From assembly GCA_947627665.1 (NCBI GenBank), contig CANQWX010000007.1, forward strand, positions 16,845 to 80,844: DNA of 64,000 nucleotides, in the 5' to 3' direction. Shown piece by piece: positions 3,210 to 58,290 of this stretch (the stretch's first letter is position 1; each line of letters begins with the position of its first letter). Origin of the DNA: an uncultured Clostridia bacterium (GTDB lineage Bacteria; Bacillota; Clostridia; Christensenellales; Borkfalkiaceae). Position numbers and translations under genes: made by a program. The notes under the pieces are model-generated. The model saw only the letters and a program-made list of their open reading frames with translations. It did not search any database and had not been told where the DNA came from.

Positions 3210-3299
3210 CATCTTTTCTTCTGTCATTTCGAGCGCAGCCGAGAAATCTCACCGCATCTTTTCTTCTGTCATTTCGAGCGCAGCCGAGAAATCTCACCG
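3210..3299. repeat. Perfect tandem duplication (2 x 45 bp) of the module catcttttcttctgtcatttcgagcgcagccgagaaatctcaccg
   Basis: Both copies (3210-3254 and 3255-3299) were read base by base. The same gtcatttcgagcg...gagaaatctc module recurs at 7957, 32468, 37310, 38728, 40541(-) and 58265. Confidence 0.9.
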
Positions 3300-3302
3300 C
3301 AT

Positions 3303-3343
3303 AAATAAAAAGCCGCGGCGGCAAGATCGCCGCCGCGGCTTTG
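3303..3343 (-). terminator. Intrinsic terminator for the minus-strand esterase operon
   Basis: agccgcggcgg / ccgccgcggct forms the stem. On the minus strand it is followed by TTTTTATTTAT, directly after the stop at 3356. Confidence 0.7.
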
Positions 3344-3355
3344 CGCCTTGGTTTC

Positions 3356-4465
3356 TTATAAGATCTCGTTGAGATATGCGAGCAACGCTTCGCTCTGCTG
3401 TTTCGCGCCCTCCAAGGAGGGATGGCTGTCCGCGCCCTTGGTGTCGGTGGGCAGCCGCAAATAGGTGATCGTGGGATCGTTCTGCTGCGCGATGGCGTCT
3501 TGGATCCCGTTTTCGACCGCAGAATTCAAGAACATCATGCCGTACACGCATACGATCTTGGCTTGGGGGTTCTTGGAGCGGATGAGGTCGAGCAGTGCGC
3601 CGTAGTCTTGGGCGAACACTTCCCGCGTATAGGAGCTGTCGCGGCCCATGTAGGAGCCGTCGTTGGTGCCGAGCGCGACCACCACGAGGTCGTGGCTCTC
3701 TTCGGGATAGGAATATTTCCCCGTCGTCACGGAGGAGAGCTGTTCATACATATCCATCATGCTGAAAGGCAGTACAAATTCCTTTTTCACGCAGATGCCC
3801 TCGGTCGCCACAATGGAGTAATCGGCGTCGAGCGCCTGCGCGGTGAGGTAGGCATAGCACTTTGCGGCGTCGGAGTTATCCACGGTGCAGCCCTTTCCCG
3901 TCGTATCGCCGAAGATCCCCGCGCCCACGGTGATGGAATCTCCCACGAATTCGACGCGCAGGCGGTCTTTTTTCGCGGGACGGAGGAACTTCCCGTCCGT
4001 GGTCAGTTTGGATACTCTTATCACGCCGTTCTGCGAGCTGATGGACTTGACGAGGCGCACGGTGTGCACGCCCTCTTCCAGGTTCTTCGCCAGAACGTAG
4101 GGGCGGTTGCCCGTCAGTTTCCGTATGGTCCCTTCGGTATCCCCGTCCACGAACGCGCGGTAATAGAGGTACTCGGTCATCGGCACGAGTTCCGCCTCCA
4201 GACGGGTGCCGTAAAAGGTCACTTCGAACCCCGTCGCCCCGTTGTCGAGGCAGAGCATTTTTTGCTGCATGTACGTTCTGCCGAACAGCCGCAGGGCGTC
4301 GGTATCAAAGGTATTGATCTCTTCGGCGGATACGACTTCCATGCCCTCCACGGTTTCGGTTTCCTGGGGTTCGGGGGGCGGATCGTCCTTCTTGTCGTCG
4401 CAGGCTGCAAACAGCGCGGCGCAGGAGAGCAGAAGCGCAAGCGTTACGGTCAACAGTTTTTTCAT
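3356..4465 (-). CDS. SGNH/GDSL hydrolase lipoprotein (carbohydrate esterase CE2-like: N-terminal beta-sandwich plus SGNH domain)
   Basis: Signal peptide with lipobox LLSCAALFAAC. It carries the GDS motif FVGDSITVGAG, LGTNDG, and a C-terminal DSHPS catalytic block. An AGGAGG RBS is present. Confidence 0.75.
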   Translation of the reverse strand: MKKLLTVTLALLLSCAALFAACDDKKDDPPPEPQETETVEGMEVVSAEEINTFDTDALRLFGRTYMQQKMLCLDNGATGFEVTFYGTRLEAELVPMTEYLYYRAFVDGDTEGTIRKLTGNRPYVLAKNLEEGVHTVRLVKSISSQNGVIRVSKLTTDGKFLRPAKKDRLRVEFVGDSITVGAGIFGDTTGKGCTVDNSDAAKCYAYLTAQALDADYSIVATEGICVKKEFVLPFSMMDMYEQLSSVTTGKYSYPEESHDLVVVALGTNDGSYMGRDSSYTREVFAQDYGALLDLIRSKNPQAKIVCVYGMMFLNSAVENGIQDAIAQQNDPTITYLRLPTDTKGADSHPSLEGAKQQSEALLAYLNEIL

Positions 4466-4474
4466 ATTTCCTCC

Positions 4475-56104: not shown

Positions 56105-56188
56105 CGCCCGGTTGCCGTTTTACGGCGGCAAAAACGGGGTATATATAAGAAAATCTCTGCGCCCGCGGGCGTGACAAGGAGAAGCGAG

Positions 56189-56722
56189 ATGGAATTCAGA
56201 GGAACCACGATATGCGCCGTCAAAAAGGACGGCGTGACGGCGATCGCGGGGGACGGACAGGTCACCATGGGCGAGAGCGTCGTCTTTAAGAACAGCGCCG
56301 TAAAAGTGCGCAGGATCTACGGAGGCAAGGTCATTTTGGGCTTTGCGGGGAGCGTTACCGACGCCTTCTCCCTCTCCGAGCGTTTCGAGGGCATGCTCAA
56401 TAAATTTGCAGGTAATCTCATGCGTTCGGCGGTCGAACTTGCCGACCTTTGGCGGAGCGACAAGATCGGCAGAAAGCTCGACGCGATGATGATCACCGCC
56501 GACAAGGACACGCTCCTCATTCTCTCGGGCACGGGGGAGGTCATCGAGCCGGACGAGGGCATCTGCGCCATCGGGAGCGGCGGGAATTACGCCCTTGCGG
56601 CCGCCCGCGCGCTCGCGCAGAACACCGGCTTTTCCGCCGAAGAGATCGCCAGAAAGTCGCTCAAGATCGCAAGCGAGATCTGCGTGTTTACAAACGACCA
56701 TATTATTTGCGAGACCGTATAA
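56189..56722 (+). CDS. hslV: ATP-dependent protease subunit HslV (ClpQ)
   Basis: [15 protein letters not shown] has the N-terminal catalytic Thr context, with GDGQVT and GSGGNYAL. An AAGGAGA RBS precedes ATG 56189. Confidence 0.93.
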
Positions 56723-56742
56723 CGCGGGCGGGGTAGGTATCT

Positions 56743-58068
56743 ATGGAAAACAAGGGAATCAATTTGTCACCGAAACAGATCGTAAACGAACTCAATAAAC
56801 ACATCATCGGGCAGGAAGAGGCGAAAAAAGCCGTCGCCATCGCACTCCGCAACCGTTACAGAAGAGCGCAGCTCTCCCCCGAACTCCGCGAGGAGATCAC
56901 CCCCAAAAACATCATCATGAAAGGCCCCACGGGCGTGGGCAAGACCGAGATCGCCCGCCGCCTCGCCAAGCTCGTAAAGGCTCCTTTCATCAAGGTGGAA
57001 GCGACGAAATATACCGAAGTCGGCTACGTCGGCAAGGATGTGGAGGGCATGGTGCGCGACCTCGTGGATTGCGCGTTCCGCCTTGTCAAAGACGAAAAGA
57101 CCGCGGAGGTCTCCGTAAAAGCCACCGACGCCGCCGAGAAGAAGATGATAAAACTCCTCGCCGAGCTGAAAAAGGCCGACCGCGGGGAAACGCCGCACGA
57201 AATTTTCGAGGCAAACCTCCTCGAATCCCTGCGCAAGGGCGTGTTCGATAACCTCGTGATCGAAACGGAGATCAAGGACGAGCCGAAGAACATGGAACTC
57301 ATCCCGGGCGGCGCCGCCATCAATCTCGGCTCCATCTTCGGCGAGATGATCCCCCAGCGCAAGAAAAAGCGCAAGATCACCGTCAAAGAGGCGATGAAGT
57401 TTTATATCGCCGAGGAGAGCGACAAGCTCATCGACGACGACGCGGTCAAGGAGGAGGCGCTGCGGCGCGCCGAGAACGACGGCATCATCTTCATCGACGA
57501 GATCGACAAGATCGCGGGCAAGGAAAACACCTCGGGCGCGGACGTTTCCCGCGAGGGCGTGCAGCGGGACATTCTTCCCATCGTGGAGGGGAGTACCGTC
57601 ATGACGAAGTACGGCCCCGTAAAGACCGACTATATGCTCTTTATCGCCGCGGGCGCCTTCCACGTCGCGCGGGTGGAGGACCTCATTCCCGAGCTTCAGG
57701 GGCGGTTCCCCGTTTCGGTGGAGCTATCCTCCCTCACCAAGGAGGATTTCGTCAACATTCTGACGAATACCGAGCATTCGCTCACCCAACAGTACGCGGT
57801 GCTGCTCGCCGTCGATAACATCGATTTGAAATTCACCCCCGACGCGATCGAAGCGATCGCCGAGATCTCCGAGGAGATCAACCTCACGAGCGAGGATATC
57901 GGCGCGCGCAGATTGCATACCGTCATGGAATATCTCTTGGAGGACATCTCCTTCAACGCGGGCGGCGGCGATTATCCCGTCGTGCCCGTGGAGATCAACC
58001 GCGCCTACGTCGAGGAACATCTCAGCAAGATCACCAAGGACAGAGATCTGAAGAAATATGTGTTGTAA
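56743..58068 (+). CDS. hslU: ATP-dependent protease ATPase subunit HslU (ClpY)
   Basis: LSPKQIVNELNKHIIGQEEAKKAVAIALRNRYRR, Walker A GPTGVGKTEIARRLA, and IIFIDEIDKI are present. Confidence 0.96.
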   Translation: MENKGINLSPKQIVNELNKHIIGQEEAKKAVAIALRNRYRRAQLSPELREEITPKNIIMKGPTGVGKTEIARRLAKLVKAPFIKVEATKYTEVGYVGKDVEGMVRDLVDCAFRLVKDEKTAEVSVKATDAAEKKMIKLLAELKKADRGETPHEIFEANLLESLRKGVFDNLVIETEIKDEPKNMELIPGGAAINLGSIFGEMIPQRKKKRKITVKEAMKFYIAEESDKLIDDDAVKEEALRRAENDGIIFIDEIDKIAGKENTSGADVSREGVQRDILPIVEGSTVMTKYGPVKTDYMLFIAAGAFHVARVEDLIPELQGRFPVSVELSSLTKEDFVNILTNTEHSLTQQYAVLLAVDNIDLKFTPDAIEAIAEISEEINLTSEDIGARRLHTVMEYLLEDISFNAGGGDYPVVPVEINRAYVEEHLSKITKDRDLKKYVL

Positions 58069-58069
58069 A

Positions 58070-58290
58070 GGGTTTCGCGCAATTCTTTGCTCCGCCCTTC
58101 GAAGGGGGCAGCTAAGGACACCACACCCGTTTCGCGTTGCTCGGCACCCTCTCCTGAGGAGAGGGCAACAAAACCCCCTCCTGCGGAGGGGGACCAAGGG
58201 GGTGGGCATTTTTCAGAACACGCCCCACACCCCTACCCCTCTCCCACGGAGAGGGTAACGTAGGGAAGCCGAGAAATCTCATCATGATTC
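58070..58290. repeat. Intergenic mosaic of repeat modules downstream of hslU
   Basis: It contains gtttcgcgcaattctttgct (compare 31545), caccctctcctgaggagagggc, CCCCCTCCtgcgGAGGGGGaccaaGGGGGTGGGC (58174-58207), the reverse copy of ccctctccgtgggagaggggtaggggtgtggggcg (58222-58256), and gccgagaaatctc. Confidence 0.85.

Follow-up and report, generated by a model that had tools for sequence, protein, structure and literature searches.

What are the short repeat modules that recur between the genes of a 64,000-nucleotide (nt) stretch of an uncultured Clostridia genome, and how did they come to lie together? The stretch (hereafter the window) corresponds to positions 16845–80844 of contig C7 in a parent assembly of 1.81 Mb (46 contigs, 57% G+C, 89% complete). 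A sequence-only reading had described six modules, A to F, as one window-wide family of hairpin repeats of the repetitive extragenic palindromic (REP), BOX or miniature inverted-repeat transposable element (MITE) kind. We propose instead that the mosaic is built from small non-coding DNA of at least three unrelated families, which are confined to one genus and have accumulated at shared intergenic positions. Of these, modules A, D and the related 'G' hairpin would be triplex-type ends of units carrying a DUF559 nuclease gene, B and C a MITE-like family, and E and F hairpins at the 3′ ends of genes. We put the probability of this explanation, taken as a whole, at roughly 60%.

Copy Number and Distribution of the Modules

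The copies listed for all six modules were in place within a few bases, although those given for module B at 32469 and 58265 proved to be right halves only, lying at 32496 and 58270. It was also correct that the modules are short, modular and intergenic, that they occur on both strands and are shuffled into mosaics, and that the first module of a mosaic often stands close behind a stop codon (relA +8, smc +11, rpsP +0, hslU +3 and a leucine-rich repeat (LRR) gene +6). The gene names in the window are backed by Pfam matches to RelA, SMC, S16, an HslU-like AAA protein, a BspA LRR protein and Ffh.

Based on a genome-wide scan, all six modules are spread across the genome and are not confined to the window. 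The window's own genome (G000; other G numbers denote genomes of relatives in the same genus) contains 107 hairpins of module A, 97 of them with a tail, 47 hairpins of module D, about 90 copies of B, 35–65 copies of C depending on the stringency, about 20 copies of E and 17 of F. The pattern for A gave 94 matches, against 0 for the reversed pattern. Sequences repeated at least five times make up 19% of the non-coding DNA (49 of 258 kb).

Gene context was assessed with a crude home-made caller based on codon usage, according to which 86% of the genome is coding. Only 4 of the 83 placeable A copies fell within called genes, and A was found in 23 convergent gaps versus 2 divergent ones (p = 2e-4). 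Relative to the upstream gene, the orientation of A was 34:20 (p = 0.08); A, D, B and C all occur in both orientations without significant bias.

Of 25 genomes from the genus, 12 carry module A, with 3 to 188 copies each, and 16 other genera of the order yielded none. Nearly all public matches to A came from rabbit-gut ('Lapin') metagenome-assembled genomes labelled uncultured Clostridia. Within the genus, G011 has 3 copies of A and 188 of B, G018 has 188 of A and 7 of B (B being counted by the 12-mer of its left part), and the E arm is practically confined to G000, G011 and G013. From species to species, the numbers of A, B and E change independently of one another, and these modules therefore belong to separate families; the idea of a single family has to be given up in favour of at least three. 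The comparison with pneumococcal BOX elements is justified as far as the modular build from short boxes and the intergenic position are concerned, but BOX has the fixed order boxA-(boxB)n-boxC, whereas the modules studied here occur in many orders and form separate families with independent copy numbers.

Triplex-Type Design of Modules A, D and 'G'

The following copies of modules A and D were identified in the window:

17324–17645, plus strand: array of six 53-nt tandem units, each a 20-nt spacer followed by module A, with the tandem repeat itself at 17324–17638
17339, 17392, 17445, 17499, 17552 and 17605, plus strand: the array copies of A, consensus CCCCCTCC-N3-GGAGGGGG-N5-GGGGGTGGG
28438–28470, plus strand: module A, 11 nt past the smc stop codon
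38683–38715, minus strand: module A, 6 nt past the stop codon of the LRR gene
40154–40186, minus strand: module A, in the convergent gap before the end of mnmG
58174–58206, plus strand: module A, in an inverted pair with the minus-strand D at 58223–58255, tails inward and 16 nt apart
37357–37389, plus strand: module D, triplex-type, CCCTCTCC-GTG-GGAGAGGG-GTAG-GGGTGTGG
38774–38806, plus strand: module D with one arm mismatch
58223–58255, minus strand: module D
58121–58165, minus strand: D variant ('G' hairpin), reading CCCTCTCC-TCA-GGAGAGGG on that strand, then an 18-nt linker and the mirror tail GGGTGTGG

In both A and D, a pyrimidine arm and a purine arm form an 8-bp hairpin, and a G-rich tail comes 4–5 nt later. 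This tail repeats the purine arm in mirror order, G standing opposite G and either T or A opposite A, so that the purine arm GGAGGGGG is followed by the tail GGGGGTGG and the purine arm GGAGAGGG by the tail GGGTGTGG. The hairpin noted earlier as a 'G' segment has the same design on the opposite strand with an 18-nt linker, and this D variant is present in about 12 copies genome-wide.

The mirror rule was counted over the own genome pooled with 0.8 Mb of related loci. Mirror tails, at offsets of 3–5 nt, accompanied 304 of about 307 hairpins with the GGAGGGGG arm, and they were found for 45 of about 49 hairpins with the GGAGAGGG arm and 17 of about 18 with the arm GGAGGAG; for the arm AGGGGAG, about 15 of 15 hairpins obeyed the rule. 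Further families comply as well, for example, the one in which AAGGGGGAGGG is followed by GGGAGGGGGTT. When the real placement of the A bases in the tail was compared with all possible placements, it ranked first in 8 of 15 hairpin families. Watson–Crick pairing between first arm and G-rich tail was considered and rejected, as by hand it accounts for 6–7 of 8 positions versus 8 of 8 for the mirror rule (for module D, 6 of 8 versus 8 of 8).

Since the tail mirrors the purine arm, one DNA strand can fold as a hairpin with a third, reverse-Hoogsteen strand, the triplet code being G.G:C, T.A:T and A.A:T with the third strand antiparallel. Judged by their sequence, A, D and the 'G' hairpin belong to the class II purine-motif intrastrand triplex motifs, and it is possible that the triplex forms in vivo. 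The modules of this type would act as DNA and not as RNA. Folding tools model Watson–Crick pairs only, and for the triplex-type modules they returned the hairpin alone.

Two other interpretations of these modules were considered. A CRISPR-like reading of the six-copy array was dropped because its 'spacers' are conserved too. Some module variants of relatives (L100, L089 and L094) carry GTGAC-TGATGAG-GG after the hairpin, which recalls the hammerhead core CUGAUGA. The hammerhead idea for the relatives' modules with CTGATGAG was abandoned because the helices are arranged in an unsuitable order and nothing relevant came from Rfam, which was scanned over the window and seven loci of the own genome.

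Comparison with Known Triplex Motifs

To our knowledge, repeats of the BoxC, PIT or triplex-motif type have been known since the 1990s, and neither a function nor a mode of spread has been found for them; Hoyne and Maher reportedly dealt with elements of this kind (BoxC, PIT, TMECO) in 2000. According to the ITxF definition, a class II intrastrand triplex motif consists, from the 5′ end, of a pyrimidine stem, a loop, a purine stem, a loop and a reverse-Hoogsteen stem, with stems of 6–15 nt, at most one mismatch and loops of 1–6 nt (PMC4666352). The consensus sequences of A and D show the same order of parts and lie within these limits, with stems of 8 nt and loops of 3 nt and 4–5 nt, and the third stem of A-type and D-type hairpins is antiparallel with G.G:C, T.A:T or A.A:T triplets. 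Where a variant has an 18-nt linker or a second hairpin, its loop is longer than the definition allows.

The type example of the class is TMECO, the BoxC/PIT repeat of E. coli, CCCTCTCCC-TGT-GGGAGAGGG-TTA-GGGTGAGGG (Holder et al. 2015, PMC4666352). Repeats of its class are intergenic and without strand bias, form inverted pairs of two loop types, are patchily distributed between close relatives and are tied to genomic instability (PMC4666352). Modules A and D share with TMECO the order of parts, the loop of 3 nt, the second loop of 3–5 nt and the triplet code, and module D even has CCCTCTCC/GGAGAGGG in common with it. They are likewise multi-copy, intergenic and patchy, without a strong strand bias, and have inverted pairs of two loop types and unstable loci. 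In contrast, their stems are 8 nt and not 9 nt long, some variants add a second hairpin or the 18-nt linker before the tail, and the modules are mixed in mosaics with unrelated ones. Moreover, they shun promoter gaps, while a position upstream of open reading frames (ORFs) is the more frequent one for TMECO. The host, too, is different: the modules come from an uncultured rabbit-gut lineage of Clostridia, while the 262 genomes named for the TMECO pattern are proteobacterial (PMC4666352).

The strict TMECO pattern, CCCTCNCCC N3-6 GGGNGAGGG N3 GGGNGAGGG, gave 0 matches in the own genome, which makes A and D new members of the class and not the TMECO family itself. It had been foreseen that the modules might match a catalogued family with a defined function; A and D do fit the BoxC/PIT/triplex-motif class, but this class is without an established function. 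A and D add new members to a repeat class that is known but functionally unexplained; B/C and E/F are likewise new, as families of kinds already known.

DUF559 Nuclease Genes

DUF559 proteins are Vsr-like PD-(D/E)xK nucleases. Two DUF559 genes were found in the own genome, on contigs C35 and C3. The gene on C35 stands between inverted arrays of a module made of a hairpin, a second hairpin and a G-tail, with the tails directed toward the gene (as read by eye), and the gene on C3 stands between 190-nt composite direct repeats. Among the DUF559 loci of relatives, 6 of 12 have triplex-type modules with inward tails on both sides, compared with 6 of 1350 ordinary genes examined with the same detector. 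The locus L179 is flanked by module A itself, with two A copies on the plus strand, then the DUF559 gene and then three A variants on the minus strand. Four clades of the nuclease correspond to four types of flank, all within one genus, and the two loci of the A-type clade have no flanking DNA in common.

At a number of these loci, DUF559 genes are flanked by triplex-type modules, and the nuclease may recognise them. Based on these arrangements, we suggest that small units with DUF559 as the sole gene have A, D and 'G' as their inverted ends, or that these modules are derived from such ends and lack the gene. Solo copies, inverted pairs and tandem arrays would then originate from nuclease-triggered repair copying, from replication slippage or from both, and the copying of modules would leave unstable intergenic regions behind. 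A bolder version, which we offer tentatively and consider rather doubtful, is that the triplex fold is selected in vivo, that each DUF559 lineage recognises its own triplex-type ends, and that the units are an undescribed class of selfish element composed of a nuclease gene and structure-forming ends. Within this bolder version, the three-way covariation of arm, arm and tail across many types of module would point to selection of the fold in vivo.

A number of observations weigh against the DUF559 proposal and the triplex design behind it. DUF559 gave no match in G018, G015 and G024, which have 188, 60 and 48 copies of A, and the presence of DUF559 showed no significant association with that of A (p = 0.12, 25 genomes). 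Around the two DUF559 copies of the own genome there is no flanking A or D, and the strict automatic triplex detector scores neither copy as flanked at all, their flanks being imperfect. The concordance between nuclease clade and flank type could reflect shared descent, as most units within a clade lie at orthologous loci. As for the design, 6 of the 15 hairpin families break the mirror rule, mainly those with GGGGAAG-type arms; by inspection, most of the non-compliant families are off by one position, and some of their tails pair in the Watson–Crick manner with an upstream segment to give a three-way junction. In E. coli, the motif adopts a triplex in vitro solely when it is an isolated single strand, and no triplex was detected in vivo (PMC4666352). 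Comparison of filled and empty sites between G000 and G013 allowed neither a target-site duplication nor an exact boundary to be defined, the intergenic DNA being too diverged. Finally, the context counts given above depend on the crude gene calls.

Some of these observations can be accounted for by passive spread, in which slippage, illegitimate recombination and gene conversion at structure-forming DNA multiply the modules without a dedicated enzyme, and DUF559 genes merely insert or survive there. The module-rich species without a DUF559 match and the orthologous position of most DUF559 units agree with it, as do the tandem arrays with a period of 51–53 nt and an element that joins a left part of E to a right part of F. 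The E. coli study, too, found no association with mobile elements and favoured instability at the motifs (PMC4666352). However, near-identical 33-nt copies at about 100 dispersed sites are hard to obtain by local slippage alone, and up to 190 copies occur in some species while sister species have none. Passive spread also leaves aside the two-sided inverted flanking of DUF559 genes, far above that of other genes, and the matching of module type to nuclease clade. We consider it an unlikely explanation, though one to be taken seriously, and prefer to regard A, D and 'G' as ends of DUF559 units.

Transposases

As the sequence-only reading stated, there is no transposase gene in the window. Its comparison with REP sequences raised the question of whether the hairpins are moved by a Y1 transposase, either as REPIN-type repeats with a REP-associated tyrosine transposase (RAYT) or as derivatives of IS200/IS605. 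The modules do resemble such repeats in being short, GC-rich extragenic palindromes, often in inverted pairs, and one PF01797 match exists in the genome. This match, however, is a classic IS200 TnpA which breaks off at ..CRGYYVDTV, a point beyond which we take the catalytic tyrosine to lie, and no modules adjoin it. No TnpB was found in the genome. Across the genus, a Y1 match was obtained in 10 of 47 genomes, and both G013 (172 copies of A) and G018 (188 copies) have none. With the sole Y1 gene truncated and species of 170–190 A copies lacking one, the RAYT connection did not survive, and we consider movement by a Y1 transposase very improbable. As drivers of the modules, RAYT/IS200, TnpB and DDE transposases were ruled out: TnpA is truncated, TnpB and DDE_Tnp_1 are absent, and Y1 does not track A.

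The modules share with the REP sequences and bacterial interspersed mosaic elements (BIMEs) of E. coli the position of short extragenic palindromes 3′ of genes and the joining with other motifs into mosaics. They differ from them in the lack of a RAYT, of sequence similarity and of the 5′ GTAG before the palindrome. Instead of the REP tetranucleotide GTAG/GTGG, 'tA' precedes the hairpin of A, and the GTAG of module D lies 3′ of the hairpin, in loop 2.

The IS200-type tnpA occupies positions 111887–112204 of contig C2 of G000 (1471–1908 of locus L001). On its 3′ side, AT-rich, foreign-looking DNA and a KilA-N/antirepressor-like ORF on the other strand were noted by eye.

Modules B and C

The copies of B and C in the window are as follows:

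3210–3299, plus strand: two identical 45-nt B units, tcttctGTCATTTCGAGCG..CGAGAAATCTC, with B at 3223 and 3268
7959–7986, plus strand: module B
37308–37345, plus strand: long form of module B, folding as a hairpin (z −0.8)
38726–38763, plus strand: long form of module B, identical to the copy at 37308
40530–40727, minus strand: in-frame insert of about 70 codons in mnmG, with B at 40537–40576 and C at 40619–40661
28505–28538, minus strand: module C
32306–32339, plus strand: module C
32519–32550, plus strand: module C
37539–37572, plus strand: module C, diverged copy

B and C have a common end, GTCATTTCG / tcttctGTCATTTCG, and fold weakly. Module B had been described as a hairpin, which does not apply to the short B unit, for which the fold is not significant (z +0.3). 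Dimers of B end in GTCATTTCG...CGAAATGAC, and filled and empty sites have diverged too far for a target-site duplication to be recognised. A search for a cognate transposase of a MITE found no DDE_Tnp_1, no TnpB and one partial rve match in this 89%-complete assembly.

Two genes carry such modules in frame. At the site of the mnmG insert, which most species of the genus lack, the flanking residues abut in about 26 other species, and the two closest species have a longer and different mosaic at the same site, also in frame. In metG (G000:C8:43757-45827), two in-frame B units (..AVISSEAAAGHAPAVISSEAEKSQ..) at 44082–44147 are part of an extra linker of about 45–50 aa, which lies between the methionyl-tRNA synthetase core and the C-terminal tRNA-binding domain and is absent from G042, G010 and G018. 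B and C would form a separate, MITE-like family that is tolerated in frame in inter-domain linkers of essential genes. Rickettsia palindromic elements are small repeats that likewise stand in frame in essential protein genes without breaking them. B and C are similar to these in lying in frame in linkers of mnmG and metG and being absent from the orthologues of most relatives; sequences and hosts are unrelated, however, and apart from these two genic cases the great majority of copies are intergenic.

Long forms of B also stand near three neighbouring surface-protein genes, which have collagen-like 45-nt (GXY) repeats at 35251–35453 and 69-nt BspA-type LRR repeats at 35800–38570. Near-identical blocks, each with B, D and another 70 nt or so, bracket these genes at 37303–37457 and 38721–38874.

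Modules E and F

Modules E and F are represented in the window by the following copies:

31535–31586, plus strand: minimal ('empty') F hairpin (z −4.9), 52 nt long, stem of 16 bp, 6 nt past the ffh stop codon
58072–58091, plus strand: left arm of F, 3 nt past the hslU stop codon, followed by the D variant, A, D and the right half of B
31708–31799, plus strand: E hairpin with a conserved extension, upstream of rpsP
32156–32247, plus strand: E hairpin with the extension, beginning at the base after the rpsP stop codon
32375–32416, plus strand: third copy of the E hairpin

E and F had been listed as peers of the other modules. In fact, the segments listed are left arms of A/T-rich hairpins of 16–20 bp, whose right arm ends in GAGGAAAC, and they form outer hairpins with other modules nested in their loops. 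Of 17 F copies, three are empty and at least 10 enclose other modules; a 114-nt F composite folds with z −7.0. This nesting in F loops explains a part of the 'mosaic', the F loop presumably receiving other modules. The insertion sequence IS1397 inserts into REP loops of E. coli, and the F hairpins resemble REP palindromes in that their loops serve as insertion sites, but here the nested elements are small repeats and not insertion sequences.

E and F begin 0–15 nt past a stop codon and run in the same direction as the gene (E 11:1, F 12:2). They are probably either RNA-level 3′-end structures or preferred landing sites. Could such a role at the RNA level apply to all the modules, as 3′-end hairpins that terminate transcription, block exonucleases or are processed, in the way that REP stabilises upstream mRNA? 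The co-orientation of E and F behind stop codons and the strong F folds speak for it, as do the position of the modules 3′ of genes and their avoidance of divergent promoter gaps. On the other hand, A, D, B and C have no significant orientation bias. An intrinsic terminator scan of 28000–41000 flagged separate hairpins and not the modules. In that interval the modules lack the hairpin with a T run that a terminator role, suggested earlier, would imply, except for one marginal minus-strand match at the A tail of 40154–40186, and ordinary terminators lie nearby. Furthermore, purine-motif triplexes are reported to be absent in RNA, and PIT elements in E. coli have neither promoter nor terminator activity and no assigned function (PMC4666352). 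Nor did Rfam match any module, either across the whole window at gathering thresholds or in seven composite loci of the own genome at E ≤ 1. We regard an RNA role for the modules at large as improbable, and retain it as a possibility for E and F within the three-family explanation.

The Rfam scans yielded only chance miRNA hairpins and a flavin mononucleotide (FMN) riboswitch (RF00050, 94 bits) at 61287–61409, apparently upstream of the gene at 61462–62079.

Two further observations concern the E hairpin. It heads a unit some 170 nt long, in which the extension GAGGAAAC...TTAAC...TAAGCCGYARGTATGCG is conserved (window positions 31750–31799 and 32198–32247), and this unit occurs in tandem arrays with a period of 167–170 nt at G000:C22:32095-32456 and G011:C24:9797-11362. 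A chimera at G000:C1:110872-110990 combines the left arm of E with the right arm of F around a nested composite, which suggests recombination between the two hairpin families.

Differences between Species

The window is syntenic with G013 at 73–92% nucleotide identity, yet its intergenic gaps almost all differ from those of G013, both in length and in the modules they hold. One difference between species lies next to relA:

17669–17745, plus strand: remnant of an MBL-fold hydrolase gene, the last ~77 nt, beside the A array

The MBL-fold hydrolase gene that follows relA is intact in G013, G011 and G042, and in G000 the six-copy A array stands in its place. The region 3′ of hslU is variable too: F with its mosaic is found there in G000, E in G013 and a variant in G011, and nothing in the more distant species G042, G010 and G018. 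The link to rearrangement and insertion polymorphism proposed earlier is therefore borne out by the replaced gene, the in-frame inserts and the gaps that differ between species.

A block of 3.4 kb (19156–22566), which holds genes for 419, 72 and 557 aa, is missing in G013, where its flanks are 29 nt apart.

Significance

In these rabbit-gut Clostridia, such repeats account for about one-fifth of the non-coding DNA. Assemblies break at them, genes are replaced by them, and mnmG and metG contain them in frame. For annotation, this means that the repeats should be masked before intergenic hairpins are taken for regulatory RNA. The genus is a compact natural test set, with many module types under one base-triplet code and several DUF559 lineages, each with its own frame of modules. 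Two questions can be addressed in it, namely whether the triple-stranded fold is selected and whether DUF559 is the partner enzyme. If the reading as a selfish nuclease element is true, the gene-less ends (A, D and BoxC) would be what the unexplained repeats of many bacteria are.

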